From: Alphaproteobacteria bacterium | GTDB lineage: Bacteria; Pseudomonadota; Alphaproteobacteria; RF32; CAG-239 | DNA length: 64,000 nt | Direction of reading: 5' to 3' | Assembly: GCA_045632645.1 (NCBI GenBank) | Contig: JAZQXC010000012.1 | Span: 16,966 to 80,965, forward strand | Shown here: in pieces, positions 6,794-60,078 of the stretch | How positions within the stretch are numbered: the first letter of the stretch is position 1 | Layout: every line of letters starts with the position of its first letter | Translations under genes and position numbers: made by a program | The notes under the pieces: model-generated | Told to the model about the DNA's origin: nothing | The model's input: the letters and a program-made list of their open reading frames with translations, nothing else | Database searches by the model: none

Positions 6794-6933
6794 ATTTATT
6801 CCTTTTTTATTTTTTTATTATGTATAAAAAAGATGATTTTGTCAAATATTTTATTATAAACATTTACTAAAATTCAATAATTTTATTATAGTATGATTAG
6901 ATGAAGGGGTTATTATTCTTTAGAGGTGTAAAT

Positions 6934-7524
6934 ATGAAATATAAAATATTATCTTTTTTTCTCTTTGTTAGTGTAATGTTTAGTTGTGAGGTTAATGCCC
7001 ATCCTTATAGTGATGAAGAAATTTCTGATGCTATAAAAAATGAAGATACTAGTTTATTTTTAGAGATGATGGCTGCTGGTGTTGATATTAATGAAAAAGA
7101 TAAAGATGGTAATAATCCTTTAATAAAAGCATCTTCTTTTGGTAAAGTTAAATTTGTTAAATTTTTAATTGATATGGGGGCAGATGTTCATAAAAGAAAC
7201 TATAAGGGGATTACTGCTTTGCACAGAGCTTCTGGTACTGGAAATAATGAAATAGTTACTATTTTACTTGATAATGGTGCGTTTGTTGATATGCCTGATT
7301 TGGATGGAAATACTTCATTAATGGCAGCTGTTTCTGCTGAAAAACTTTCAACTGTTGAGTTATTGATAAAAAGAGGAGCAAATGTTGCCTTTAGAAATAA
7401 GCGCGGCGAAACTGCTATAAAAATAGCAAAAACAAAACGGTTTATTAATATATATTCATTCTTAAAGGTAGATAGAAGTAATGATGTATTAAAAAAAGAA
7501 TCTAATTATAGCTGGGATTATTAA
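6934..7524 (+). CDS. Secreted ankyrin-repeat protein
   Basis: The ATG at 6934 follows the SD AGAGGTG. The signal peptide is MKYKILSFFLFVSVMFSCEVNA. About 4 ANK repeats are present (DGNNPLIKASSFGKVKFVKFLIDMGADV, KGITALHRASGTGNNEIVTILLDNGAFV, DGNTSLMAAVSAEKLSTVELLIKRGANV, RGETAIKIAK). Confidence 0.85.
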   Translation: MKYKILSFFLFVSVMFSCEVNAHPYSDEEISDAIKNEDTSLFLEMMAAGVDINEKDKDGNNPLIKASSFGKVKFVKFLIDMGADVHKRNYKGITALHRASGTGNNEIVTILLDNGAFVDMPDLDGNTSLMAAVSAEKLSTVELLIKRGANVAFRNKRGETAIKIAKTKRFINIYSFLKVDRSNDVLKKESNYSWDY

Positions 7525-7648
7525 TTTAAATATTAAAAAAGGTGGAGAAATCCATCTTTTTTTTTATTTTAATCTCTTGCGATTAAAAAAAACGTTACCT
7601 ATATTTTATAACAAAGGCTATAGTATTATTTTAAGGAGTGATTTAAAA

Positions 7649-9484
7649 ATGGCTGATAGAATAGAATTTAAAACAGAAGTAAATAAGCTTCTTGATATTG
7701 TTATTAACTCTTTATATTCAGAAAAATATATCTTTTTAAGAGAGCTTATTTCTAACGCATCTGATGCTTTGGATAAACTTAAATATTTAAAACTTACGAA
7801 TCCTGATATAAAAACTGATGGAAGCTATAAAATTACTATCACTCCTAATAAAGATGAGGTTACTTTATCTATTTCTGATAATGGTATTGGTATGAATAAA
7901 GATGATTTAATAAATCATATTGGTACTATTGCAAAATCAGGAACAGCTGATTTTTTGAAAAATACAAAAGATAATACGTCAGTTGTTGATTTGATTGGTA
8001 AATTTGGTGTTGGTTTTTATTCTGCATTTATGGTTGCTAATAAGGTTGAAATTACAACTAAAAAAGCAGGTGAAAATGAGGCTTTTGTTTGGGTATCTAA
8101 TGGAATTGATGGATATACTATTGAAAAAACACAAAAAGAGCAAAATGGTACTGATATTAAATTATTCTTAAAAGATGATGCTAAAGATTTTATTGATACT
8201 ATTTATTTAAGAAATATTATTCATACCTATTCTGAACATATTGACTACCCTATTGTGTTAAATTTAGGAGAAGCTGGTGAAGAAACTGTTAATACAGCAA
8301 CAGCTCTTTGGACCAGAAATAAAGCAGATATAACTGAAAAGCAGTATATTGATTTTTATCAACATGTTACTAAAAACTTTGATGATCCATGGATGACGCT
8401 TCATTTTAAAGCTGAGGGTAGTATTGAGTATAGTGGTTTGTTATTTGTTCCAACAAAGGCGCCTTACGATTTGTTTCAACCTGATAGAATGAGTGGACTT
8501 AAATTATATGTTAATAAGGTATTTATTTCTGATAAGGTAGAAGGTTTGATGCCATTATATCTTCGTTTTGTTAAAGGTGTTATTGATAGCCAAGATTTAC
8601 CTCTTAACATTTCAAGAGAAATGCTTCAACAAAGTGCCTTAATTTCTAAGATTAGACAAGGTATCGTATCTAGAATTTTTAAAGAACTTAAAAATAAAGC
8701 CAAAGATGAAGAAAGCTATAATAAATTCTGGAATGCTTTTGGTATTGCGTTTAAGGAAGGTATTTATGAGGATTTTGCAAATAGAGAAGAAGTTGCAAGT
8801 TTGTCTCGTTTTTATACAACAAAATCAGTAGATAAACTTATATCTTTAGATCAATATATTGAGCGTTTAAGTGATAAACAAAAAGAAATCTATTATATTA
8901 CAGGAGATGATGCTAAGACATTAAGTTGCAATCCATCTTTAGAAATTTTTAAGCTTAATGATGTTGAAGTTTTATTATTAACAGATCCTATTGATGAATT
9001 TTGGACACAAACGTTACTTAACTACAAAGGTTATGAGTTAAAGCATATTAATCAAGCTAAATTGGATTTGGAGATTAAACGTAACGATGAAAAGGCAAAT
9101 GATGATAACTTAAATCTTTTAATTCAAAAAATGAATGAATGGTTTGTTGGCGAAGTTGGTAAGATAGAAATTACAGAAAAGCTATCAAATAGCCCTGCGA
9201 GCCTTGCTGTTAGTGAAGGACAGATGAGTATCCATATGGAACGCTTAATGCGTAATCACCAACAAAAAACAGCTTTTGATAGTACTAGAATCTTACAATT
9301 AAACCCATACCATCCTTTAATTATTAAATTATCATTATTAATTAAAGACGAGTGTAATATTGAAAGAGTAAAGGATGCATCTATGCTTATTTTAGAACAA
9401 GCTAAAATAGCTGAAGGTGAAGCTGTTTCTAATCCACAATTATTTAATGAGAAGCTTAGCGAATTTATCTTAAAGGCAATTTAA
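7649..9484 (+). CDS. htpG: Molecular chaperone HtpG (Hsp90)
   Basis: FKTEVNKLLDIVINSLYSEKYIFLRELISNASDALDKLKY and ISDNGIGM...IGKFGVGFYSAFMVA are GHKL/Hsp90 signatures. The ATG at 7649 follows the SD AAGGAG; the ORF track start at 7577 is probably too far upstream. Confidence 0.95.
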   Translation: MADRIEFKTEVNKLLDIVINSLYSEKYIFLRELISNASDALDKLKYLKLTNPDIKTDGSYKITITPNKDEVTLSISDNGIGMNKDDLINHIGTIAKSGTADFLKNTKDNTSVVDLIGKFGVGFYSAFMVANKVEITTKKAGENEAFVWVSNGIDGYTIEKTQKEQNGTDIKLFLKDDAKDFIDTIYLRNIIHTYSEHIDYPIVLNLGEAGEETVNTATALWTRNKADITEKQYIDFYQHVTKNFDDPWMTLHFKAEGSIEYSGLLFVPTKAPYDLFQPDRMSGLKLYVNKVFISDKVEGLMPLYLRFVKGVIDSQDLPLNISREMLQQSALISKIRQGIVSRIFKELKNKAKDEESYNKFWNAFGIAFKEGIYEDFANREEVASLSRFYTTKSVDKLISLDQYIERLSDKQKEIYYITGDDAKTLSCNPSLEIFKLNDVEVLLLTDPIDEFWTQTLLNYKGYELKHINQAKLDLEIKRNDEKANDDNLNLLIQKMNEWFVGEVGKIEITEKLSNSPASLAVSEGQMSIHMERLMRNHQQKTAFDSTRILQLNPYHPLIIKLSLLIKDECNIERVKDASMLILEQAKIAEGEAVSNPQLFNEKLSEFILKAI

Positions 9485-9498
9485 TATTAAACAAGGTA

Positions 9499-9533
9499 AA
9501 GGCGCACATTTTTTATATTTGTGCGCTTTTTTG
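9499..9533 (+). terminator. Putative terminator after htpG
   Basis: GCGCAC (9502-9507) pairs with GTGCGC (9521-9526) and is followed by a T-run. The loop is rather large (13 nt). Confidence 0.45.
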
Positions 9534-9639
9534 TGACTATAAATCAAATGGTTATATTTTATTATTAAAAAATGTGGAAAAAAATAAAAAAAGTACTTGC
9601 TATTATAAAAAATATTATATATAAATCATATTCGTGATT

Positions 9640-9715
<76 letters not shown>

Positions 9716-9721
9716 CTTAAA

Positions 9722-9748
9722 AAGCTCCCTTTTATGGGAGTTTTTTTG
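9722..9748 (+). terminator. Terminator after tRNA-Phe
   Basis: Hairpin GCTCCC-TTTTAT-GGGAG followed by a T7 run. Confidence 0.6.
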
Positions 9749-9855
9749 TGTTTGTTTTAAAATCCATTGACTTATCGATGTTTTTCTGCCCGCCTTTTGC
9801 TTGCAACGAACTCACTGTTGTGAATTCAAACCTAATTATGTTGCAATTTAGTCAT

Positions 9856-9882
9856 AAAAAAAAACTCCATTTACTGGAGCTT
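9856..9882 (-). terminator. Terminator after tRNA-Arg (minus strand)
   Basis: Read on the minus strand: CTCCA-GTAAA-TGGAG followed by a T9 run. Confidence 0.6.
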
Positions 9883-9889
9883 AAAAAAA

Positions 9890-9966
9890 TGGCGCACTCG
9901 GCGGGGTTCGAACTCACAACCTTCTGATCCGTAGTCAGATGCTCTATCCAGTTGAGCTACGAGTGC
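9890..9966 (-). tRNA. tRNA-Arg (ACG)
   Basis: The reverse complement is GCACTCGTAGCTCAACTGGATAGAGCATCTGACTACGGATCAGAAGGTTGTGAGTTCGAACCCCGCCGAGTGCGCCA. The anticodon loop is CTACGGA (ACG), the cloverleaf is canonical, and CCA is encoded. Confidence 0.93.
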
Positions 9967-11981: not shown

Positions 11982-13075
11982 TATTTTGTGATGCAAGATA
12001 AGCTTGAAGGAAGATATCTATATCACCATCTAATACTGATTTATCATCAGATGTTTCAACCTCTGTTCTTAAGTCTTTAATCATTTTGTATGGTTGAAGA
12101 ACATAACTTCTGATTTGGTATCCCCAACCATTATCTCCTTGTTCTTCCCATTTTTTCTCAGCAATTGCTTCTTTTTTACGCTGCTCTATTTCATATAGTT
12201 TTGCTTTTAACATATTAAGAGCGTGTTCTCTGTTTGCAAATTGTGAACGTTCTGTTTGGCATGAAACAACAACACCTGATGGAATATGGGTTAGTCTTAC
12301 AGCTGACTCTGTTTTATTGACGTGTTGGCCTCCAGCTCCTGAGGAACGATATGTATCCATCTTTATGTCTGCTGGATTTAATTCTATATTTATTTTATCA
12401 TCAACACTTGGGTAAACCGTTACAGATGCAAAGCTTGTATGGCGCCTTGCGTTGCTATCAAATGGAGATATTCTAACAAGTCTATGCACTCCTGTTTCCC
12501 CTTTTAACCATCCGTATGCGTTTATTCCTGATATTTTAATTGTGGCAGATTTTAAGCCTGCAACATCGCCTTCTGTTTCTTCTATATATGAAACTTTATA
12601 TTTATTTTTTTCTGCCCAGCGTGTATACATTCTAAGTAACATTTCAGCCCAATCTTGTGCTTCTGTACCGCCAGAGCCGGAATGTACCTCGAGATAGGCA
12701 TCATTTTTATCTAATTCTCCTGATAATAATGATAAGAGTTCTTTTTGTTTTGCAGATGCTTTTAATTCTTCTAGATGGCTAAAAATGTCTTTTAGCATAT
12801 CTTCATCTTCTTCTATTTCTGCTAATTCTATTAATTCAATTGTATTATTTAGAGAATCGACAAGATTTTCATAAAATGATATATTTTCATCAAGTGTATT
12901 TTTTTCTGCAGTTAGCTTGAGAGCTTGTTCTTGATTATCCCATAAAGCAGGATCTGATGTAAGGTGTGTCAGCTCTTCTTGACGAAGTTTAGCGTTATCA
13001 TAGTCAAAGAAACCTCCTTAAGATTTCTTTGCTTTCGTTTATTTCGCTTATCAAGTTATAAAACTCTGCTCTCAT
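11974..13075 (-). CDS. prfB: Peptide chain release factor 2, expressed through a programmed +1 frameshift
   Basis: ORF0 (13075..13007) encodes [23 protein letters not shown] and runs into TGA. Shifting +1 at CTT-TGA-C gives [15 protein letters not shown]... and joins the 274-aa ORF, which contains the SPF-type tripeptide (RISPFDS) and the GGQ motif ([17 protein letters not shown]). Confidence 0.95.
13003..13018 (-). promoter_or_regulatory. prfB recoding site: internal SD-like AGGAGG, 3-nt spacer, slippery CTT TGA C
   Basis: The minus strand reads AGGAGG TTT CTT TGA C. This has the same architecture as the well-studied RF2 autoregulatory frameshift site. Confidence 0.9.
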
Positions 13076-45174: not shown

Positions 45175-45213
45175 CAAAAAAAACTCCACCATTTGAGGTG
45201 GAGTTCTTTTTTT
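45175..45213 (-). terminator. Terminator downstream of the 549-aa lipoprotein gene
   Basis: Perfect 9-bp stem AACTCCACC (45182-45190) / GGTGGAGTT (45197-45205), flanked by an A-run and a T-run. Confidence 0.75.
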
Positions 45214-46861
45214 ATATATAGTCTGCTTTGGATGAATGAAATGTTCTTGTTTGACCATTTTTTGATGTTAATGTTAGAGTATAGTTGTCATCGGTATATT
45301 CTTCTATATAGCTATCCATTTTCGAACAATATTTTCCGTTAACAATATTTTTCCAACCAATAACTTTACAGGTGATTGCATCTATTGCTGAAAGCAATGT
45401 GTTATTCTCGGCGTACCAATATATAACACTTGATGTATCAACAGCTCTTGCTAATCTGTAATTGTTTTCACCTGATTTTATGGCGACAGAGTTAAATCCG
45501 GAATAACCACTTTGTGTATATGTGAAGATTGTTGGAAAATCTTCTTCATAATCACATACCCCCCAGTCGTATCCTTTCTCATAACGTATTACAATACATT
45601 TTTTTGTTGTATTATTTTGAACGTCAAAGATTGCGCTCACATGGTGTGATATTATCCTACCATGGGTTGGATATGTTGGTGATGGAGGAGTTGGAGTTGG
45701 CTCTTCTTGTCTTAACTCTAGTGTTGTTATTACATCTTTATCGAATGTTTGAGAGGCGATAGAAAAAGTTGCAATAGTTTTATTTATTGCTGTTGTATCG
45801 TTTTCTATAGTTAATTCATTATAAGATGTAAAATGAGTATCCAAATCAAACTCAAAGGTTTTACCCCATATATAACAACTAATTATGTAATTCGAATAGG
45901 TAAATTCATCAAAAAAGCTATCTGTACCATTAGTGTAGATGTGCTTTTCAGATATAATATTCTCTGATATACACCAATTTTCTTTACATAAATCTCTTGT
46001 TACAAGAGGGGCTTTCTCTTTTTTGAGGGTGAAATTGAAATTATCTACGCTAATTGTTTTATTAGATGATGATGTAAAGCTTATCTCCAAAGGATCAGTT
46101 ATATATCTTTCTTTGCGCTCTCCTTTGTTTTTCCATACATCTATTTTTTCTATATATAAAACAATGCTATTAGATGTTATCCAATCACATCCTTGCTTGA
46201 AAGTTGTTTCGATAAGAGTGTCATTCCTGTCTTGAGCTGATGAGTGTTTTGTATATTCAATAGTTAGATTTTCACTGCCCTTTTGGTTTAAGTTGGTAAC
46301 TTCCCAATTAAACTTAAAGTTTAGCTCAACAAAATACAAGCCCTCAATAAATGTATCTTCTTTAATGCTTGATGATACAAAATCTATAGAGGTTATGCTC
46401 ATTGTTGGCATTGCAAATGATGATGTTTCATTTTCTAATATGAATGTTTCAAACATTATATCTGCACATACAGTTTGCGTGTCGCTAAAGGTAAACTCTT
46501 TAGTAAATGTGGTAACTATTGGGTTCATACCTCGGGTGTCTTTTGATGTTTGGCTATCTTCTAAAACAGGTGTTAGAGAAGATGCATCATCAAACATAAT
46601 GGTGTCTTTTTTAGGATAAACCCTAACATTTGCATTTGGGCGTAAAACCAGACCTCTATTACCATAGTTAACTCTTAGTATCTGCGCATTTTCAAAAATG
46701 ACTGTATCACCTTTGATGGTTGAGCTCCACTCTTGACGATAATCTTTTACAGCACCTTCAAATGCGGTAAAATTTGTTGTTTCTTTTGCACAACTTGATA
46801 ACACACTCATGAATATGCCTATACCTAGTACAAGCATAAACCATTTAACTATCTTTTTCAT
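45212..46861 (-). CDS. Large ORFan lipoprotein (549 aa)
   Basis: The signal peptide plus lipobox is MKKIVKWFMLVLGIGIFMSVLSS|C. The body is beta-rich, with a P/T-rich linker EEPTPTPPSPTYPT. No family recognised. Confidence 0.6.
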   Translation of the reverse strand: MKKIVKWFMLVLGIGIFMSVLSSCAKETTNFTAFEGAVKDYRQEWSSTIKGDTVIFENAQILRVNYGNRGLVLRPNANVRVYPKKDTIMFDDASSLTPVLEDSQTSKDTRGMNPIVTTFTKEFTFSDTQTVCADIMFETFILENETSSFAMPTMSITSIDFVSSSIKEDTFIEGLYFVELNFKFNWEVTNLNQKGSENLTIEYTKHSSAQDRNDTLIETTFKQGCDWITSNSIVLYIEKIDVWKNKGERKERYITDPLEISFTSSSNKTISVDNFNFTLKKEKAPLVTRDLCKENWCISENIISEKHIYTNGTDSFFDEFTYSNYIISCYIWGKTFEFDLDTHFTSYNELTIENDTTAINKTIATFSIASQTFDKDVITTLELRQEEPTPTPPSPTYPTHGRIISHHVSAIFDVQNNTTKKCIVIRYEKGYDWGVCDYEEDFPTIFTYTQSGYSGFNSVAIKSGENNYRLARAVDTSSVIYWYAENNTLLSAIDAITCKVIGWKNIVNGKYCSKMDSYIEEYTDDNYTLTLTSKNGQTRTFHSSKADYI

Positions 46862-47058: not shown

Positions 47059-47808
47059 ATGAATTATGATGAAATTAAGGGGGTACTTTTAGATGATTCT
47101 AAGAGGCTCGCGTCGAAAGAAGCAAAGGATATTATTTTTTGCTGGAAAAGAGATCATGGTTTGCTAGAAAAACTGTTAAGTGATGATGATTGTACATGCA
47201 CTTTGAGAGTGTATGATAGCTATTCAAGTGATGACAATGCTCATTACTTTATCGAGTCAAATGTTAGGTTTGTTTCTGAAAAAATTGCTCTTAAGTTTTT
47301 GGAGGCACAAAACGACATTGTTTCTGCTGACTTTATTGATATTGTGTCAGCTATTGCCTTTAAAGATGAGGAGGAAAGCCCAGTTGTTTTTGCCTGGCCT
47401 TTTCTTTCAGAGCGCTCTTTGGAATGCTTAACTTATGGAGTTATAAAGCATCTCATTGCTAACAATTTCTTTGTATTTGATTTTTCATCAGATACTGAAG
47501 GCGATATTTTTGCTTGTTTTGTTAATATTGTTTCTGATGACATGTATCTAACAGAACTTTTGGCTGTTAATAGCTTTAATATTACTTCGTATGTATCTAA
47601 CTCTAAGTTTGTAGATCAAATGGAGTTATCGGGAGCTATTGCACTTTATGCTTATTCATCTCATGGATTTAGCAATGATTCAACAGATTATGGCATCTAC
47701 CGAAAATTATTTATTAGGTATATGTCTTTTGTTCTTAATACAGTTGAGACTGTTAAAAGAACATGTGCAAGTCAAGAAATGAAATCTAGCAACGGAAGGC
47801 TAAGTTAA
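47059..47808 (+). CDS. Hypothetical acidic cytoplasmic protein (249 aa)
   Basis: Intact ORF ending at a strong terminator. No motif recognised. Confidence 0.45.
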   Translation: MNYDEIKGVLLDDSKRLASKEAKDIIFCWKRDHGLLEKLLSDDDCTCTLRVYDSYSSDDNAHYFIESNVRFVSEKIALKFLEAQNDIVSADFIDIVSAIAFKDEEESPVVFAWPFLSERSLECLTYGVIKHLIANNFFVFDFSSDTEGDIFACFVNIVSDDMYLTELLAVNSFNITSYVSNSKFVDQMELSGAIALYAYSSHGFSNDSTDYGIYRKLFIRYMSFVLNTVETVKRTCASQEMKSSNGRLS

Positions 47809-47838
47809 AAAAAGTCGGGTAATACCCGACTTTTTTTA
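47807..47838. terminator. Bidirectional terminator closing the AAA+/vWA operon and the convergent 249-aa gene
   Basis: GTCGGGT (47814-47820) pairs with ACCCGAC (47824-47830) around a 3-nt loop. It has an A-run upstream and a T7 run downstream. Confidence 0.75.
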
Positions 47839-48150
47839 TTCTTGTACTTCAAAGGCACAATATATATCTTTGCTAATCGAGGTTCTATTTAAGACTGTTG
47901 TTAGCCCTTTTGAAGTGATTGCGGCAAACTTTGGAATATAAACGTTTTTTACATTTGGATTATTCATCGCTTCTTCTAGTTCGCTTAATGTTCCAACCTC
48001 TTTATTTCCTTTTAGGTTTTGAACAACAATTTCTTCACCTTCTTTGTTAAGGTTATAAACTTTGTTACCACCAATAATTGTATAATCTCTTGCCATTATG
48101 GTTTTTAATATAATGGTTTCGATTTGGTCTTTATTAAACCCTTTAGTCAT
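47836..48150 (-). CDS. Small ORFan (104 aa), translationally coupled to the AAA+ gene
   Basis: Its start overlaps the stop of the upstream 896-aa gene by 8 nt. No motif recognised. Confidence 0.5.
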   Translation of the reverse strand: MTKGFNKDQIETIILKTIMARDYTIIGGNKVYNLNKEGEEIVVQNLKGNKEVGTLSELEEAMNNPNVKNVYIPKFAAITSKGLTTVLNRTSISKDIYCAFEVQE

Positions 48151-50833
48151 TACCCATACCTCCTATATTTCTTCTCATAAGCATAGATGGTTCAAGCTTT
48201 TGCTCTGTTTTGTATTTTTCGTTTGATAAAAGAACTACATTACCATTTGTTTCTCCACCAAAGCTAGTAGATGAATCGCTTGTGAAAATTGATAAGAATG
48301 TTGCAACAGAATTTTCATCATAACTAATATTTGCAAGACTCTGATTTACCCTTAGCATTACACTATTTAATAATTCACTTATATCTACATCGCTATTATA
48401 AATTTGTCTTTTTAGAAAGTTTGCGATTGCTTCATAGTCATTTGTTTCTGCTTTATTATAATTAACAAATACAATGCTAGCATCTTTTAGTTTTGCTCTA
48501 TCGTCACCACTTGGTTCAAAATCTGCAAGAATAACTGTTTCGCCGTTTTTTTTGTTATATATAATATAAGCCTTACCTAAATCACCATTTTCTTGTCCTT
48601 GGCTATTATTTACCATAACACATGTTGTAAAGAATTCTGAGTCACATCCATTAGCAATTTTTTTAGATCTCTCAGGAGCGCCGCTTGCATCTTCTGTTAT
48701 TTCAACATGTTCTGCTTCGAGTTTTTTCATATTATACTCACGAAGCTGTTTAATTATTAAGCTATCGATAAATTGTTCACTTGTAATTAATGAATTAGGG
48801 TTAACATTCTCTGTATTACCATCTAGTGAAGTAGTGTGAACTATTAAAATAGGCTCATCAGGACAGGCTTTCATATCATGGTTTGGAATTGCTATGTTAT
48901 TGCTTATCTCCTCATTATTGATATTTGTGCTAAGCAATGCTATCGCCTCCTCTAGTATATCATCATCAATAATATCTTCAGAAGTTAAACCTTGTTTATT
49001 ATATATTTTTTGGATTGAAGATGTGATAACTTCTTTTATATTTGCAAAGTTATGTGATGGAAAATCATCTTCTCTTGCATTATAAAGTTTTTCAACACTA
49101 TCTTCACCAACATATCCTGCTGATGCAAATTTATTTCTTTTTGCAATATCTTGTATGCCCTCAGCTAATGTTTGAACGGCCTCTGCGTCTTCTTTATATG
49201 TTGCAACATCATCTAGATAATCGTTGATTGTTGTTGGTTTAATTAAGTCTATTACTCTTTCAACAACTGTATAATCAAGAGATGAACCTCGTGTATACAT
49301 TCTATTTTTTTGACGAGCTTTTATTCTTTTATTTAACTTTTCTTGTGTTGTTATTTGACGCTCTTCATCTGTTTTAGAAGATGCTGACTTTCTTCTCCCC
49401 TTAAAAGGAGATTTGTGTTCTGTCTCTGTTGCTTCAATTTTTCTATCACTTTCTGAGCGTTGAATAAGCTTAAATACATAACGAAGGTCTAAAAGAGCTC
49501 TGTTTGTTAAATAATCTCTATATTTTTGGGGCAATGCTTCGTTTTGAGAAGCCTCTTTTGCAAATTCCCTTGCCTCATATACAAAGTTTGCTATATGTTC
49601 AGCTACTCTAAGAGTTCTATCAATATGTTTAATATTGAATAGTTCTTCTTCAGGAATTTGTTTTTTCTCTTCGGCGCTTAACCCTATAGTTCTCATATCT
49701 AGTAAAATTTCTGATAACTCTTGTGGGTGGTTATCATAATATTCTGGATCTGTTATATAAACATAATATGCAGGAACGCCTGTTAAATGTTTTAGTGTAC
49801 GAGAAAAGAAGTCAGCCTTTGATGGATTTGGAATTTTACAAATATCAATATTTGCACCTTCACGAGAAATCATAGGTTTTGTGAGTTCTTTTGCACTTGT
49901 ACCCATATCATCTGTTGCTTCGTTACATGTTGAAAAACAGAAAAATACAGGTGGAAGTTCTTTACGTTTTAATGTGAAAGGAATATCATCTTCACCTTTT
50001 AAGGTTATTTTTGGAGTACCTTGCTCTGATAAAAACGATTTAATTTGAAGCCATGCATCAACTTGAGGAATACGATTACTTTCATCGAGGATAACAATAC
50101 GACCATAGTTTGGATCTTCTTGATCTGATAATGCTTGTAATAAAGGACCATTTGATGTTGCAAAACCTACATTATTTTGGTTTTCTTTATATTCTATTCC
50201 TTCCATAGACATTACTTTATCACAAACACCTTCAATATATGAGCTATTTTTAACTTTTGCAAGAGCTCCTACCCAGTCAATAGCGACTATTTTTTGTCCT
50301 TCTCTTTCTTCTATACTAACAGCGTCTTCTAGCATTTTTTGTAAGTATTCAATCGTTTCGGGAAGTAGCTCTTTTCCTTCTTTATTAATTATTTTCAAGT
50401 GCGAGTCTATTTGTCTTGTTTTATCTTTTTGCCCTACGTTAAAAGTTGTTGTACGATATAATTCATCTGGGTTATCTAAACTTTCACAGTTTACGACAAA
50501 TGCTCCTAATGGATGCATTAGCTCACCAAAAGCTTTTGCCATAAAGGTTTTACCAGAACCAGGGCTACCCTCTATTGTATAACCATAGCTTTTATCGTTT
50601 CCGCTTCTTGATGTATCAAAACGATATATCATCTCAGTCATAGGCTCCATCATAGATGGGTCTGAGATAACTCTTCTTAAAAATCTTCCATAAAACTGCT
50701 CGGTAGTATCTTCGCGCATTGTTGGAAGGAAGACAGACTCTTCTTCTGAGGCTATCCATTTTATTCCTTGCCTAGTAAATATTGGAATTGGATACTCTTC
50801 TGTTCCTAATTGATGGTATTTTATTTCTCTCAT
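48143..50833 (-). CDS. Giant MoxR/AAA_5-like (CobS-like) AAA+ ATPase with long C-terminal extension
   Basis: Walker A is GSPGSGKT (nt 50546-50569). Walker B is RIVILDESNR (D250-E251 at nt 50081-50086). About 150 aa separate the two motifs, and about 550 aa of unrecognised sequence follow the ATPase core. Confidence 0.7.
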   Translation of the reverse strand: MREIKYHQLGTEEYPIPIFTRQGIKWIASEEESVFLPTMREDTTEQFYGRFLRRVISDPSMMEPMTEMIYRFDTSRSGNDKSYGYTIEGSPGSGKTFMAKAFGELMHPLGAFVVNCESLDNPDELYRTTTFNVGQKDKTRQIDSHLKIINKEGKELLPETIEYLQKMLEDAVSIEEREGQKIVAIDWVGALAKVKNSSYIEGVCDKVMSMEGIEYKENQNNVGFATSNGPLLQALSDQEDPNYGRIVILDESNRIPQVDAWLQIKSFLSEQGTPKITLKGEDDIPFTLKRKELPPVFFCFSTCNEATDDMGTSAKELTKPMISREGANIDICKIPNPSKADFFSRTLKHLTGVPAYYVYITDPEYYDNHPQELSEILLDMRTIGLSAEEKKQIPEEELFNIKHIDRTLRVAEHIANFVYEAREFAKEASQNEALPQKYRDYLTNRALLDLRYVFKLIQRSESDRKIEATETEHKSPFKGRRKSASSKTDEERQITTQEKLNKRIKARQKNRMYTRGSSLDYTVVERVIDLIKPTTINDYLDDVATYKEDAEAVQTLAEGIQDIAKRNKFASAGYVGEDSVEKLYNAREDDFPSHNFANIKEVITSSIQKIYNKQGLTSEDIIDDDILEEAIALLSTNINNEEISNNIAIPNHDMKACPDEPILIVHTTSLDGNTENVNPNSLITSEQFIDSLIIKQLREYNMKKLEAEHVEITEDASGAPERSKKIANGCDSEFFTTCVMVNNSQGQENGDLGKAYIIYNKKNGETVILADFEPSGDDRAKLKDASIVFVNYNKAETNDYEAIANFLKRQIYNSDVDISELLNSVMLRVNQSLANISYDENSVATFLSIFTSDSSTSFGGETNGNVVLLSNEKYKTEQKLEPSMLMRRNIGGMGND

Positions 50834-50903
50834 TTTAATCTCCTCTTTTTTTTTATTATTATACTATTTTTTTATCCCTTTGTCAAATACACCATTATTA
50901 ACT

Positions 50904-53900
50904 TTACATTTCTAATACATCTTCAATTAATTTTTTCTTAACTCTATTAGTTGTTTTTTCTTTAACTTCGCTAAATTTCAACCTCTTTTGTAGCATTTCT
51001 ATTATTTTTTTACTTACTGTTTCTTTTATTCCTTCTGCAGTTGTTCCTCCAAATACATTATTAACATAGTCTATTTGGGTTGAACCTTTGCTTTTCATTT
51101 CATCAATAAGTGGTCTTGTGTAGTTATTCCAACCGTGATCTATAAAGAAACTATCAAAGGTAATGTCTGGATTATTTTCTAAAATATTTCTGATATAACC
51201 ATTAACATCTTTATTGCGATAGTCGTTATTACCTCCATCTGTTATACTAAATATGTGTGTAAAACCACTTGTTTTGTTAGGTTTTTTACCAAGATTTTCA
51301 GCAACATCTTCTAAACATCTCTTTATGGCTGGAGATAAATGGTCGTTACATCCTGTTCCATCTGATCTTTTAGCTGCTGATATGTTTTCTGCAATTTCTT
51401 TTGTTGACATCCCTGGTTTTGCAATTGTATATGGTGTTGGATCACCCATCATATAAATATATACGTTTACCTCTTTGATGCTTTTTACTGCCTCATATAA
51501 AATACAAGCTGTTGCAAGAGCATTATCAAATGGACCACCACACATTGAGCCAGAGCCATCAATTAAAATACAAAAATTACTTTCTTCTATTATGGTTTCC
51601 TTTATTACCTCATCTTCTGAAACAGATATTTCTGTATCAAAACGCTGTAAATCTTTTTTAGTAATTTTAGGATCACGTTTTTGAATTTTCTCCAATAACC
51701 TTTTGTGTCTTTCTTTATCAAGAGTTGTTGCGCCCTGAATTGGTAATACTGTTTTTAATGTTTTACTGTGAGCATGCCCTCTTCTTATGCTATCACGTTT
51801 TTTTTGTTTTATAATTTCTGTAATAATTCGCTTAGCACTAGCAATTGGCTCTTTATACTGAGCTACATATTTTTGATAATCATCATATGAGCCCTCAAGC
51901 AACTTTCTTACATATTCGCTACTTTCTCTATTTGGATTTTGCATTTGAGTTATATCTATAAGTATTGGTTCTGTTCTTTTAGGCATAAAATCACTAAAAT
52001 CATCCACACCTTCAGATGAAGGTTCACTATCATTTGTGTCTTGAGAATCACTATTTTCACCTCTATTGCCAAGCTCTTCCTTAGTCATTTCTCTTTTAGC
52101 CTCTTCGCCTAGCTTTCCTATTTCTTCAGCTTTTTCAATCATTTCTTTTATTTCTTCTTCGGTAAACTCTTTTGATTTCTCGTTTGGAGTTGTATCAAAG
52201 GTTGAAGCAGAAGGATAACCATCTTCTGTTTCTAGTTCTTGTTCATTACCATTGCCTGTACCTGATTTATTTTCTTGCTCTTGTTCTTGCTTCTCACCTT
52301 TGCTACTACCTTCTCCATTTTCTTGTTCTTCTTGAGTGGTATCGTTGTTGTTACTATTATTTCCTTGATTTTGTCCACCATCTCCTTCTTGATCTTGGCT
52401 TTGCTCTTCTTGGTTGTCTGGATTATGAGAATCTCCTTCTTTGCCTTCTTGAGGACTTTGATCTTGATTTGATCCACTACTTTGATTTGAGCTACCTCTT
52501 TCGCCTTGATCCCCTCCTGATTGAGGTGTACTACTTCCATTTTGTCTTTGTTGTTCCGCTTGATCTAACATTCTTTCAGCAGACTTTTCAGCCTCTTTAT
52601 AAATTTCTTCCATATGGTGAGCGACAAATTTATCAAAGAACTCATCAGCCATTTTAGCTCTTTTTTGGCTTAAACGTGTCATTCGTTTTTCATACAACCC
52701 TTCATTAATAGTTCTTAAAGAATTTGATGGTTGACTTGCCTCAAATTCATTGCAAATACGTCTTATTTCATCAAAACTTTCATCAGCGGTCATTTTGACG
52801 CCATCACTATCAACACCATCTAAAAGCTCTGGAAATAGATTTATTCTATGCCAATCTTGATATGAATGATTTATAACCAATTCATTATTAGCAAAAAAGC
52901 TGTTTCTTGCAATTGCTTTAACATGAGCGATACGAGCTTGGGCACTTTGTGATATCTCTTGTTTAAAATCTGATATTTTTCTGGGAGATAAAAACTTTTC
53001 TCCGACATTTATTATTGTTTCTAACTCATTTAGGTGTGCTTTATCATAATCACCACCAACATTTACGGCGCGACGGTTAGCATACATATTTTCTAATTCA
53101 TCTAAAAACCTAAATCTGTATTGATATTCTGCTTGTAATCTTGCTGCCTCTTTGGCTACTTTTAACCATTCATCCTTTGCATTTTTTTTGGCTAAATCCC
53201 TCATTTGTTCTTGTAATTCTTTTACTCTTTTATCTATAACCTCCATTTTTGGAGTTTGTAATGTTTGTGTCCCTTTAGAGTGAGCTATTTCGTGGTTTAT
53301 GGCTGTTGCTGAGGCATCTGTTCCACAAACAAGTGTCCATAGCATATCATCTACAATTATGTTTTCGCTTGGAATAAAACAATAGCTTATATTAGGATAT
53401 CCATGCTCTGAATATACAATTTTAGTCTTTTTATTTGCTTCTGCCACGCTTATAATATATGCATGCTTTTTTAATTCTTTTTGCATATATGATGATTTTT
53501 CTATTCTTTTCCATATTGTTGTTTGAGATATCTTTCCTGTTCTATGTTTAGCATCCCAAGTGTTGCCAATTTCCCTATGGGTTGCATAGTAACCAAGAAC
53601 CATCCCCCAAAATAGCATTGACTCTTCGCTATCTAAAGTTAGGGGTTTTTTGATATCACCAGTTTTTATAAAATGTTCAAAATTTTCTCTATGAGTGGCA
53701 AATATTTCTTTTTTCTCATTTGTATCAAACAACTCCTCAAGCTCATTAAATAAATCTTCTAGCTTTTCTATACTAAAATTCTCTTTAGCTCTTGGTGATA
53801 AAAACGCCTCAGAAAACTGTACTCTGATTCTGTTTAATGGACGGGCTACAATACTTTCCACATGGCGTATTTGGGCTTCTTGTTCTCTTTGTTGGTTTTC

Positions 53901-53918
53901 TTTTGATGATACTATCAT
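50904..53918 (-). CDS. HExxH (putative metallopeptidase) + acidic low-complexity linker + C-terminal vWA (MIDAS) domain protein
   Basis: HEIAH is at residues 209-213 (nt 53280-53294). Residues ~455-640 are Q/E/N/G/S/D-rich low complexity. The MIDAS-type DGSGS sits in FCILIDGSGSMCGG (nt 51546-51560), with later IFSITDGGNN. The architecture resembles DUF2201/COG3864 or CobT-type partners of MoxR ATPases, but the protein is much longer. Confidence 0.65.
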   Translation of the reverse strand: MIVSSKENQQREQEAQIRHVESIVARPLNRIRVQFSEAFLSPRAKENFSIEKLEDLFNELEELFDTNEKKEIFATHRENFEHFIKTGDIKKPLTLDSEESMLFWGMVLGYYATHREIGNTWDAKHRTGKISQTTIWKRIEKSSYMQKELKKHAYIISVAEANKKTKIVYSEHGYPNISYCFIPSENIIVDDMLWTLVCGTDASATAINHEIAHSKGTQTLQTPKMEVIDKRVKELQEQMRDLAKKNAKDEWLKVAKEAARLQAEYQYRFRFLDELENMYANRRAVNVGGDYDKAHLNELETIINVGEKFLSPRKISDFKQEISQSAQARIAHVKAIARNSFFANNELVINHSYQDWHRINLFPELLDGVDSDGVKMTADESFDEIRRICNEFEASQPSNSLRTINEGLYEKRMTRLSQKRAKMADEFFDKFVAHHMEEIYKEAEKSAERMLDQAEQQRQNGSSTPQSGGDQGERGSSNQSSGSNQDQSPQEGKEGDSHNPDNQEEQSQDQEGDGGQNQGNNSNNNDTTQEEQENGEGSSKGEKQEQEQENKSGTGNGNEQELETEDGYPSASTFDTTPNEKSKEFTEEEIKEMIEKAEEIGKLGEEAKREMTKEELGNRGENSDSQDTNDSEPSSEGVDDFSDFMPKRTEPILIDITQMQNPNRESSEYVRKLLEGSYDDYQKYVAQYKEPIASAKRIITEIIKQKKRDSIRRGHAHSKTLKTVLPIQGATTLDKERHKRLLEKIQKRDPKITKKDLQRFDTEISVSEDEVIKETIIEESNFCILIDGSGSMCGGPFDNALATACILYEAVKSIKEVNVYIYMMGDPTPYTIAKPGMSTKEIAENISAAKRSDGTGCNDHLSPAIKRCLEDVAENLGKKPNKTSGFTHIFSITDGGNNDYRNKDVNGYIRNILENNPDITFDSFFIDHGWNNYTRPLIDEMKSKGSTQIDYVNNVFGGTTAEGIKETVSKKIIEMLQKRLKFSEVKEKTTNRVKKKLIEDVLEM

Positions 53919-57462: not shown

Positions 57463-60078
57463 ATGAAAAGAATGTTGATTGATGACACTCAACCGGAAGA
57501 AACACGTGTTGTGATTGTCGATGGTAATAAAATTGAAGATGTAGAGTTTGAAACATGCTCTAAAAAACAAATAAAAGGTAATATTTTTACTGCAAAAGTG
57601 GTTCGTATTGAACCTTCACTACAAGCTGCTTTTATTGATTATGGCGGGAATCGTCATGGTTTTTTAGCTTTTGGTGAAATTCATCCTGACTACTATAATA
57701 TTTCAAATGAAATTAAACAAGAGGTTGAAAAAGAAGTTGATGAAATTATTGAGCGTAAACGCCAATATCAATTAGAGCGTCAAGCTGAACGTGAGCGTCG
57801 TCGTTTAGAACGTGAGCAAAAACGTGCTGAATATGAAGCTCGTATTGCAGCTGAGAAAGCAAATAATGATGCAAAACATTGTGATTGCAAAGCAGAACGT
57901 AAAGTTATTTGCGATTGTTGTTGTGATGCATGGTGTAGCTGTCAAATAGATTATCAAAATATCTCTTCTTGTAAAAAAGAGGATAATGAGACTTCTTTAG
58001 TTAAAGAAAATGAAGTTGTTTCTGATTGTGGCTGTTCTAGCAATTGTGAATGTCGTAAAGAAGACGGATTTTGCCATTGTGCTGAAAATGGCGAATGCAC
58101 ATGCTCTTTAGCTAAAGAAAATGAAGCTTCTATTGTTGAAGCTCAGGAAGAGAATTTAACTGAGTGTGTTGAAAATTCTGATGATACTGAGGTTGTGGTT
58201 GATTCAGAAGACGAAACAACATCTGATATGGAAGAAGAAAACCAACAACGTAAACCTCGTCGTCGTGGAACTAGATTTTTAGGTTGTAGATCTGGTTCTA
58301 AAGGTAAATATAAGGTTGCTTTAGAGGCTAGCGCTATTAAGGATGATTGCTTGGCTGAAAATATCTTAGAAGAAGATGATGATTTTGACGATGATGATGC
58401 TTCTTTTGAAAATAAGCGAAAATCTTATGATAATGACAACGATTGCGATGATGAAGAAGTTGAAGATGGCGATACAGAACGTTATTTAGAAATTCAAAGA
58501 AAGCTTATTTATGCAAGAAAGCTTTATCATCGTTCTTCTATTCAAGATGTTATAAAAGAAGGTCAAACTGTTCTTGTTCAAGTTGTTAAAGAAGAAAGAG
58601 GTAATAAAGGTGCAGCTTGTACGACATATTTGTCTTTAGCTGGTCGTTATTGCGTTTTAATGCCTAACAGAATTAAATCTGGTGGTGTTTCTAGAAAAAT
58701 TACAAGCGCTCAAGATCGTAAGCGTTTGAAAGATTTGATGAAAGAATTACCATTAAATGATGATATGTCTATGATTATTAGAACAGCTGGCGAAGATAAA
58801 AAACGTGAAGATATTATAAGAGATTATAATTACTTAATTCGTACATGGAACCATATCCGTCATAGCGCTTTGAGCTCTCATGTTCCTTCTATTATCTATG
58901 AAGAAGGTGATTTGATTAAACGTGCTCTTCGTGACATGTGCACAAAAGATATTGGTGAAGTTATCATTGATGGGGATAATGCATATAAAGTTGCCAAAGA
59001 CTTTGCAAAAATTTTATCTCCTAATTTAAGCAAAAAGATAAAATGTCGTAAACCAAATGAAATTCCAGTGTTTCAACACTACCAAATCGAAAGAGAATTA
59101 GATAAACTTCATAATCCTATTGTTCAACTTGCTAGTGGTGGTTATTTGGTTATTAACCCAACTGAGGCTTTGGTTGCAATTGACGTTAACTCTGGCCGTG
59201 CAACTGCTGAAATGGATATTGAAGAAACAGCTTTAAAAACTAACCTTGAGGCTGCTGATGAAATTGCTAGACAATTAAAGCTTCGTAACCTTGCTGGTCT
59301 TATTGTTGTTGATTTTATTGACATGGACGAACCTGCTAATAATCATGCTGTTGAAAAACGTATGAAAGAAGCATTAAAATCTGATCGTTCTCGCGTTCAA
59401 ATTGCTAAAATGAGTATTTTTGGTTTATTAGAGATTTCTCGCCAAAGAATGCACTCTTCTTTTGTTGAAAGTAACTATGTAACCTGCCCTTATTGTAAAG
59501 GTCAAGGTGTTCAAAGAACCACAGAATCTGGTGCAAACTTAATACTTAGAGCATTAGAAGAAGAAGGTATTAAAAAAGCGTATAACCATTTAGAGGCTAG
59601 ACTACCTTCTGATACTGCTATTTATATCTTAAATCACAAACGTAGGATTTTAGCAGATTTAGAAGAAAAATACGATATTGAAATTATAATATCTGCTGAT
59701 TCTTCTATTAAAAATATATCTGATTATAAGATTGATCGTACAAAAGTGGTTAAAGAGGTTAAAACTCAAGTTGCAGCAACTTCTGCTTATGATCATGCTT
59801 CTATGTGTGAAACTGATGATGAAGACGAAGAAATTGAAGATGAAGTTATAGAAACTGAAGATAATTATAGAGAAAATAATCGTCGTCAACGTCGAAGATT
59901 TGATAATAGACGCAAATCTAAGATGAAAAATCGTCGTGACAGAAATAATAGAAGAGAACGTGGTAACAATGTTGAAGAGTTTGAAAACAATGTTGTTGAA
60001 ACGGTAAAAGTTGAAGAAGAAGTTGCTATTAAACCAAAAGAAGAAAAGAAAACTTGGTGGAAAAAGCTTATTGGATAA
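57463..60078 (+). CDS. rne: Ribonuclease E with a ~275-residue insertion in the S1 subdomain
   Basis: MKRMLID...ETRVVIVDGNKIEDVEFE, the S1 halves KGNIFTAKVVRIEPSLQAAFIDYGGNRHGFLAF and IQDVIKEGQTVLVQVVKEERGNKGAACTTYLSLAGRY, the DNase-I-like segment LVAIDVNSG...GLIVVDFIDM, the Zn-link CPYCKGQG and an Arg-rich C-terminus are all present. Confidence 0.92.
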   Translation: MKRMLIDDTQPEETRVVIVDGNKIEDVEFETCSKKQIKGNIFTAKVVRIEPSLQAAFIDYGGNRHGFLAFGEIHPDYYNISNEIKQEVEKEVDEIIERKRQYQLERQAERERRRLEREQKRAEYEARIAAEKANNDAKHCDCKAERKVICDCCCDAWCSCQIDYQNISSCKKEDNETSLVKENEVVSDCGCSSNCECRKEDGFCHCAENGECTCSLAKENEASIVEAQEENLTECVENSDDTEVVVDSEDETTSDMEEENQQRKPRRRGTRFLGCRSGSKGKYKVALEASAIKDDCLAENILEEDDDFDDDDASFENKRKSYDNDNDCDDEEVEDGDTERYLEIQRKLIYARKLYHRSSIQDVIKEGQTVLVQVVKEERGNKGAACTTYLSLAGRYCVLMPNRIKSGGVSRKITSAQDRKRLKDLMKELPLNDDMSMIIRTAGEDKKREDIIRDYNYLIRTWNHIRHSALSSHVPSIIYEEGDLIKRALRDMCTKDIGEVIIDGDNAYKVAKDFAKILSPNLSKKIKCRKPNEIPVFQHYQIERELDKLHNPIVQLASGGYLVINPTEALVAIDVNSGRATAEMDIEETALKTNLEAADEIARQLKLRNLAGLIVVDFIDMDEPANNHAVEKRMKEALKSDRSRVQIAKMSIFGLLEISRQRMHSSFVESNYVTCPYCKGQGVQRTTESGANLILRALEEEGIKKAYNHLEARLPSDTAIYILNHKRRILADLEEKYDIEIIISADSSIKNISDYKIDRTKVVKEVKTQVAATSAYDHASMCETDDEDEEIEDEVIETEDNYRENNRRQRRRFDNRRKSKMKNRRDRNNRRERGNNVEEFENNVVETVKVEEEVAIKPKEEKKTWWKKLIG

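Follow-up and report, generated by a model that had tools for sequence, protein, structure and literature searches.

A conserved trio of ATPase, VWA adaptor and small protein in uncultured Alphaproteobacteria, probably a remodelling machine of CobS/CobT type

Three co-oriented genes on the minus strand of a 64,000-nucleotide (nt) stretch of alphaproteobacterial DNA (contig JAZQXC010000012.1, positions 16,966 to 80,965; referred to here as the window) encode proteins of 1004, 896 and 104 amino acids (aa), which we call the adaptor, the ATPase and the small protein. The trio is probably a chromosomal, vertically inherited, three-subunit machine for ATP-driven remodelling of the CobS/CobT type, forming a separate, unannotated branch in metagenome-assembled genomes (MAGs) labelled Alphaproteobacteria. 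Judging from its motifs, it is possibly also proteolytic. Direct observations are the domain architecture, the intact motifs, the conservation of the trio, its synteny, the purifying selection and its absence from the mobile elements searched. The gene arrangement had been described in an earlier note on this DNA, and recomputation of all coordinates, including those of the closing terminator, confirmed it. A gap of 70 nt lies between the adaptor and ATPase genes, and the start of the small gene overlaps the stop codon of the ATPase gene by 8 nt.

The ATPase carries a Walker A motif (GSPGSGKT) and a Walker B motif, with a spacing of 155 residues between K95 and D250. The positions noted earlier for the key motifs of both large proteins were correct; 50081-50089 corresponds to LDE, residues 249-251 of the ILDES sequence. 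In an alignment of 29 ATPases of the family, G89-T96, D250/E251, N253/R254, T302/N304 (sensor 1) and R324 were all invariant. The N253/R254 pair recalls the DExNR signature of MoxR-type ATPases. The Pfam model AAA_5 matched residues 87-149 with 26.6 bits (cut-off 22), and it was matched in 12 of the 29 aligned members.

The AlphaFold2 (AF2) model of the ATPase, with a mean predicted local distance difference test score (pLDDT) of 79.5, shows one AAA+ module in each chain. The chain starts with a small region rich in beta structure, followed by an alpha/beta core, a helical lid and a C-terminal extension. The enlarged insert between Walker A and Walker B holds a hairpin (residues 172-185), and a second hairpin (residues 275-289) is found just before the sensor-1 strand. 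From the order of the secondary-structure elements, these hairpins appear to sit at the helix-2 and pre-sensor-1 insert positions of clade-7 AAA+ proteins. A Foldseek search against the PDB placed NorQ (from the NorQ-NorD VWA complex) first, followed by dynein, HslU, ClpB, CbbQ, McrB and Rea1. The 896-aa protein belongs to clade 7 (MoxR/CobS/NorQ-like) of the AAA+ ATPases; it is intact and has a family-specific C-terminal extension. This extension (about residues 471-896, some 430 aa) consists of long helices and an alpha/beta domain and is conserved family-wide. It has no detectable relative, and models from Pfam, NCBIfam, PADLOC and PDB sequences leave the C-terminal half of the protein uncovered.

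The adaptor is built from an N-terminal domain (N-domain) with an HEIAH motif, a disordered acidic/polar linker, and a C-terminal VWA domain that has an N-terminal extension and a DGSGS MIDAS (metal ion-dependent adhesion site). The mean pLDDT of its AF2 model is 73.9. In the model, the N-domain has three strands (residues 166-191), the HExxH helix (200-216) and then long helices, and E276 lies in the helix formed by residues 248-310. We propose H209, H213 and E276 as zinc ligands. Topology and conservation fit the gluzincin layout of a zincin-like domain, and the predicted topology matches that of the M48C-like N-domain of CobT (CobT_N). Residues H209, E210, H213, G216, D273, E274, E276 and N277 of the N-domain and the MIDAS residues D787, S789, S791 and D894 were invariant in an alignment of 24 adaptors. 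Conservation across the family means that the motifs exceed chance, and a fortuitous HExxH was therefore rejected. In the larger set of 33 adaptors derived from individual loci, both histidines are gone in one subclade (L025-L028), where the site has decayed to RExxN/Y/H. Among representatives at 50% identity, HExxH is retained in about 77% and replaced by RExx[K/R/Y] in about 18%; in this set, E276 is retained best among the residues of the second motif.

The linker is rich in E, S, G, Q, N and D, and its pLDDT is 24-40 over residues 462-560 and 620-678. The linker alone is hypervariable, its length shifting even within a species by 10-aa QSQSGQGQPQ units to give proteins of 1053, 1063 and 1073 aa. 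Within-species differences in linker length, including larger indels, were seen for P0044, P0061, P0102, P0050, P0052 and P0136 in proteins otherwise at least 99% identical. In L013, the adaptor gene is split into two overlapping open reading frames (ORFs; 6898-8529 and 8318-9946) broken in the linker, either by a frameshift or by an assembly error in low-complexity sequence.

Just N-terminal of strand beta-1 of the VWA domain, the adaptor has a basic segment (residues 713-778). By analogy, this segment would occupy the position of the CobT shaft or the NorD finger. Pfam VWA_2 matched residues 784-874 with 23.4 bits, which is under the cut-off. In Foldseek searches of the PDB, the VWA domain alone scored, with the Rea1-MIDAS structure 6qt8 first (E 9.1e-5, 360 aligned columns) and other VWA domains next. 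Against BFVD, the best matches were phage proteins with CobT or VWFA annotation. These were full-length matches, over about 870-1060 columns and with E down to 2.7e-11 (about 900 columns aligned in that case), and the top ones were annotated as cobalt chelatase CobT subunit or cobalamin biosynthesis protein. A search of PHROGs gave only a weak match to phrog_1576 over the linker and the region preceding the VWA domain. The N-domain had no match in Pfam and none among PDB sequences, whether a single sequence or a profile was used. The pairing proposed earlier, of an ATPase of the AAA_5/MoxR class with an HExxH-linker-VWA protein, along with the coupling to a third gene, is supported.

The third gene had been regarded as an ORFan. 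This view was rejected, because a homologue of the small protein, usually of 95-106 aa, is found directly 3' of the ATPase gene in both gene orders described below. Every locus with DNA downstream of the ATPase gene has it, except L026 and L029, so that the third gene encodes a conserved subunit. Sizes of up to 157 aa, returned by the mechanical ORF caller, occur in L004 and L030. Within the small-protein family, R89 is invariant, and at least 90% of members share E59, A61, L87 and I96. The protein had no Pfam or PDB match, and comparisons by hhalign with the ATPase and with the adaptor revealed no relationship. Its translation is coupled to that of the motor, and it may be a client or a regulator. 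Speculatively, the MIDAS coordination could be completed by E59 of the small protein, which is nearly invariant.

A scan of 185,579 species genomes yielded 34 loci from 34 species representatives, a count that is a lower bound since the scan used specific peptide patterns. The trio is confined to MAGs labelled Alphaproteobacteria, with the exception of one labelled Bdellovibrionales. The conservation of the three-gene neighbourhood, which the earlier note had put forward as a check, was evident across these loci in two gene orders, adaptor-ATPase-small and ATPase-small-adaptor. Wherever both are present, the adaptor and ATPase genes are neighbours (in L038 the sequence stops within the ATPase gene). 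Full-length relatives of the ATPase number 38 (875-980 aa, 24-53% identity), their sources all being uncultured Alphaproteobacteria of the gut or the environment, and 183 homologues of the adaptor were found. A profile of the N-domain run against 1.84 billion representative proteins retrieved only 189 clusters, mostly of about 850-1350 aa, the shorter ones being fragment-like. By this profile the N-domain family is small, closed and constant in architecture. In eight representatives of its distant members, a C-terminal VWA domain was again the sole domain recognized by Pfam.

In the gut clade, the gene order is RNase E, TrkH, a PMT-like glycosyltransferase, the trio, a gene for a 249-aa protein, a lipoprotein gene and PSD. 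The position of the trio in this order is fixed across species whose ATPases are just 37-46% identical to that of the window. Over this long range, the trio is 37-46% identical, versus 62-79% for the housekeeping neighbours. Between sister species, the ratio of nonsynonymous to synonymous substitution rates (dN/dS) was 0.02-0.18 for the trio and 0.03-0.10 for TrkH and PSD. No relatives of the trio were detected by tblastn in GenBank phages and PLSDB plasmids or by a scan of IMG/VR contigs. Such behaviour is that of a core function passed on vertically under strong purifying selection. The fixed synteny, the low dN/dS and the lack of mobile-element relatives indicate vertical inheritance and not a defence island.

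The description of the system as undescribed was upheld, as no model from Pfam, NCBIfam, PADLOC or PDB sequences falls on the N-domain, the C-terminal half of the ATPase or the small protein. Pfam searches of all alignment members returned only AAA_5 and VWA_2. The only NCBIfam match was at chance level (E 0.027, 13.5 bits against a cut-off of 365), and PDB sequence searches, done with single sequences and with profiles of the ATPase, the N-domain and the small protein, gave nothing significant.

Ring formation, shaft insertion, clamping, proteolysis and the role of the small protein are modelled on CobSTN and NorQD. According to this model, the ATPase would assemble into a hexameric motor. 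The VWA domain of the adaptor would dock on the ring and direct the basic segment 713-778 into the pore, in the manner of the CobT shaft or the NorD finger. The peptidase-like N-domain, tethered by the acidic linker of about 200 aa, would bind the motor lid and clamp the client together with the MIDAS face, and ATP hydrolysis would then drive client remodelling. Most members have an intact HExxH motif and downstream glutamate, so that the N-domain may, in addition, cut the client. The small protein, made in step with the ATPase, would be a dedicated partner, acting as client, adaptor or regulator.

CobT, a protein of 637 aa, comprises an M48C-like N-domain that has a three-stranded sheet, about 90 aa of disordered linker and an extended MIDAS VWA domain; the shaft of its VWA domain is inserted in the ring of CobS, CobT_N attaches to the lid of CobS, and the two CobT domains hold the client CobN between them (bioRxiv 10.64898/2026.07.21.739949). 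Like CobT, the adaptor has a peptidase-like N-domain, a disordered linker and a MIDAS VWA domain extended at its N-terminus, and the motor of the trio is likewise a clade-7 AAA+ protein with intact Walker A and B motifs, sensor 1 and arginine finger. The trio differs from CobS/CobT in the large Walker A-Walker B insert and the 430-aa C-terminal extension of its 896-aa motor, in an adaptor of 1004 aa with a linker of about 220 aa, and in a constant third subunit of about 100 aa. The length of the motor is about 2-3 times that which the earlier note expected of canonical CobS or MoxR proteins.

The Pfam models suggested earlier as a check on AAA_5, VWA, CobT and DUF2201 membership gave little: AAA_5 alone was above its cut-off, VWA_2 stayed below, and the CobT, CobT_C and DUF2201 models were unmatched. 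In particular, PF06213 (CobT), PF11775 (CobT_C) and PF12556 (CobS_N) had no match in the window proteins at E<=0.1, in the 24 adaptors and 29 ATPases at E<=0.01, or in the eight distant representatives. The contrast with housekeeping CobS/CobT that the earlier note had drawn stands at the level of sequence models, by which the trio is not canonical. It was too sharp in other respects, since the adaptor has the exact architecture of CobT and its fold matches phage CobT-like proteins.

One of the top fold matches, gp45 of Gordonia phage GMA2, has an HETGH motif, an acidic G/S linker and a DxSxS VWA domain. The shared layout indicates that the HExxH-linker-VWA arrangement is a general CobT-like architecture and not a novelty of the trio locus. 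In the phage (L042, 1899-7508), the genes encode, in this order, a 677-aa ATPase with C-terminal AAA_5, a 153-aa protein, a 250-aa protein and the 731-aa HETGH-linker-VWA protein. Comparison of this cluster with the trio family by hhalign gave low probabilities, so the likeness is architectural, with no detectable sequence homology. The large motor and the small intervening genes of GMA2 parallel the layout of the trio. Unlike the phage CobST-like pairs, the trio is chromosomal, in MAGs labelled Alphaproteobacteria, and not phage-borne.

Other clade-7 systems share parts of this design. NorQ is the best solved-structure match of the ATPase, and its partner carries a MIDAS VWA domain; the NorD finger is inserted in the NorQ pore, and the motor remodels the linker (PMC13036017). 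In contrast to the adaptor, neither NorD nor CbbO has an HExxH N-domain. Midasin (Rea1) resembles the trio in its AAA_5-type motor, D/E-rich linker and C-terminal MIDAS domain. Rea1 is a single polypeptide with six AAA modules, whereas the ATPase of the trio has a single module per chain, and Rea1 is without a peptidase-like domain. The MIDAS domain of Rea1 binds ligands with ubiquitin-like (UBL) domains, and the 104-aa protein of the trio has no family match. DUF2201 (COG3864) proteins paired with COG0714 have an N-terminal HExxH domain, a VWA-type domain and a MoxR-class ATPase partner in common with the trio. The trio proteins are much larger, with a long acidic linker and a third subunit, and neither PF13203 (DUF2201_N) nor PF09967 (DUF2201) matched any member examined.

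Several observations weigh against a remodelling machine of CobS/CobT type. In the Foldseek search with the ATPase, the best E-value was 3.9e-3 and no match was below 1e-3. As no CobT, CobT_C, CobS_N or DUF2201 model is matched, the kinship with CobS/CobT is one of predicted folds and architecture. The genes of NorQ/NorD and CbbQ/CbbO adjoin those of their clients (NOR, the nitric oxide reductase, and Rubisco), whereas no client gene is evident beside the trio. The small gene is missing from L026 (labelled Micavibrio sp.), where just 37 nt (12583-12620) separate the ATPase stop from a leucine-rich repeat (LRR) gene; its sister genome L027 has the gene at 12565-12864. No small homologue was recognized in L029, in which the ATPase ORF is truncated (476 aa). 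Finally, about 18% of the family is without the histidine ligands (RExxK/Y); the core function cannot depend on proteolysis, and any peptidase activity would not be universal in the family.

How far the trio might instead be known machinery in disguise was weighed from several sides. The CobS/CobT-like housekeeping pair occurs even in alphaproteobacteria without cobalamin synthesis, and the trio could be its strongly diverged orthologue, enlarged by insertions in fast-evolving, AT-rich lineages. The CobT-like architecture and fold, the near-restriction to MAGs labelled Alphaproteobacteria (one Bdellovibrionales aside) and the core syntenic position under purifying selection are what such an orthologue would display. 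Orthology of this kind is nevertheless unlikely in our view, given that the CobT, CobT_C and CobS_N models fail on all of the 24-29 diverse members and the eight distant representatives, that about 430 additional C-terminal residues of the ATPase are conserved family-wide, and that the third gene is constant. A constant third gene is not known from CobST. With respect to full-length, collinear orthology to CobS/CobT in a syntenic core position, which the earlier note had named as evidence against a new system, the syntenic position and a collinear CobT-like architecture, about half of that evidence, are present. A genuine CobST motor and adaptor, serving a CobN encoded elsewhere in aerobic B12 synthesis, would account for the CobT-like fold and the cobalamin-related annotation of the top matches. 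We regard this as very improbable and rejected it, since no sequence model assigns the proteins to CobS or CobT and no cob gene or CobN-sized gene was present within about 10 kb of the trio in about 40 loci. The intact peptidase motif, the extra subunit and the much larger proteins also speak against it.

A role in conflict, raised by the earlier note, would make the trio an anti-phage system of the vWA-MoxR ternary kind, in which the VWA/MoxR pair senses the invader and releases or activates a metallopeptidase effector. The three-component layout of a vWA and MoxR core with a third conserved protein in one cluster is shared with such systems, LRR or ankyrin genes stand next to or near the trio in clades outside the gut, and the trio diverges over long range beyond its housekeeping neighbours. 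In vWA-MoxR ternary systems, however, a VMAP, iSTAND, FtsH or beta-propeller protein serves as the third component (Kaur et al. 2020, PMC7159879), whereas the third protein of the trio has about 100 aa and belongs to no such family. The VWA domain forms the C-terminus of the adaptor, with no effector domain, variable or otherwise, after it. PADLOC, the part of the suggested defence-system check that bears on this point, gave no match to the trio proteins. The suggested check for variable islands found the gut-clade trio in one syntenic position among housekeeping genes across species, with dN/dS as low as reported above and no relatives in the phage, plasmid and viral-contig collections. A mobile defence island was rejected on these grounds, and a conflict system in general appears improbable.

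A more far-reaching version of the CobS/CobT-type machine is that the family preserves a catalytically active CobT-type adaptor, that is, a VWA-tethered, ATP-driven metalloprotease in which a clade-7 ring presents the client to the zincin site. We consider this a tentative idea that is rather unlikely to hold. Candidate clients would be the co-encoded 100-aa protein and the LRR or ankyrin proteins that several clades encode beside or near the trio. If true, the trio would be a two-polypeptide analogue of FtsH-type AAA+ proteases and would hint at an origin of chelatase adaptors from peptidases. The clade-7 AAA+/VWA machines (CobST, BchID, NorQD, CbbQO, RavA-ViaA and midasin) are the least understood AAA+ group, and the resemblance of the CobT N-domain to M48 peptidases was reported only very recently. 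With its small, closed family, a peptidase motif that is mostly kept, a third subunit and the motor extension, the trio could show the role of the peptidase-like domain in adaptors of CobT type, and whether true ATP-dependent proteases exist among these adaptors. It also offers a first way into the function of conserved genes that lack annotation in uncultured gut Alphaproteobacteria.

In clades other than that of the gut, eukaryote-like repeat proteins are encoded next to the trio or in its vicinity (Table 1). An RNI-type LRR gene lies directly downstream in L025-L028 and L030, and the gene in that position in L032 gave a weak LRR match. The L030 protein matched LRR_6 with 35.9 bits; the L025 and L030 LRR proteins are only 26% identical, yet both are adjacent to the trio, and the LRR proteins next to the trio share a conserved C-terminal domain. 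The L030 adaptor retains HEIAH, unlike those of L025-L028 with their decayed HExxH, yet it is also LRR-adjacent. The LRR protein may be a fourth component or a client. Ankyrin genes lie directly downstream of the trio in L039 and, by a weak match, in L024; arrays of them flank L004 and L040, and they are also present within L033-L037. They flank the trio in the clade with the ATPase-small-adaptor order, some arrays consisting of three to six genes. The repeat-gene neighbours could point to clients or may merely reflect genomes rich in such genes.

Table 1. Positions of the trio genes, their motifs, domains and transcription signals in the window, and of repeat-protein genes in related loci
Feature	Sequence	Positions	Strand	Size, residues or basis
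Adaptor gene	window	50904-53918	minus	1004-aa ORF
ATPase gene	window	48143-50833	minus	896-aa ORF
Small third gene	window	47836-48150	minus	104-aa ORF
Adaptor N-domain	window	52536-53918	minus	residues 1-461; AF2 pLDDT about 90
Adaptor HEIAH	window	53280-53294	minus	residues 209-213; translation and family alignments
Adaptor disordered acidic/polar linker	window	51882-52535	minus	residues 462-679; AF2 pLDDT and composition
Adaptor C-terminal VWA domain with N-terminal extension	window	50907-51881	minus	residues 680-1004; AF2, Foldseek, MIDAS invariance
Adaptor DGSGS (MIDAS)	window	51546-51560	minus	residues 787-791; translation
ATPase Walker A GSPGSGKT	window	50546-50569	minus	residues 89-96; translation, invariance
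ATPase Walker B D250-E251	window	50081-50086	minus	translation, invariance
Internal sigma-70-type promoter	window	50858-50886	minus	TTGACA-17-TATAAT, 12/12 match; in the 70-nt gap 5' of the ATPase gene
Bidirectional intrinsic terminator	window	47806-47838	both	15-bp stem, T-runs on either side
LRR gene	L025	7306-8520		
LRR gene	L026	12620-13765		
LRR gene	L027	12867-14000		
LRR gene	L028	12937-14139		
LRR gene	L030	13010-14587		
LRR gene (weak match)	L032	9022-9642		
Ankyrin genes	L004	386-8597 and 18829-19758		
Ankyrin genes	L039	13066-15671		
Ankyrin genes	L040	960-5583		
Ankyrin gene (weak match)	L024	6211-7878		

The gap between the adaptor and ATPase genes contains a perfect sigma-70-type promoter. 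Gaps compared with this segment of the window were those of L001, L003 and L005-L022. In most of the 14 related loci printed, an element of the form TTGnnn...TGnTAnAAT (an extended -10) followed by AGGAG is kept. Together, the perfect promoter and the conserved element suggest that a separate promoter probably also serves the ATPase and small genes. The terminator behind the small gene is common to the trio and to the convergent plus-strand gene at 47059-47808.

That plus-strand gene and the minus-strand gene at 45212-46861 adjoin the trio as lineage-specific genes to which no function is assigned, and both are syntenic in the gut clade. The product of 45212-46861 is a 549-aa lipoprotein (lipobox LSSC) that evolves fast, with 55% aa identity where TrkH has 95%, and a dN/dS of 0.29. 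The RNase E of the clade (57463-60078 on the plus strand of the window; 434-3067 in L001, 221-2860 in L016 and 384-3053 in L017) has a metallothionein-like, cysteine-rich insert with 17-28 cysteines within residues 120-330, which in L017 takes the form of tandem CxCxxADGECHCKDGAECTC units.

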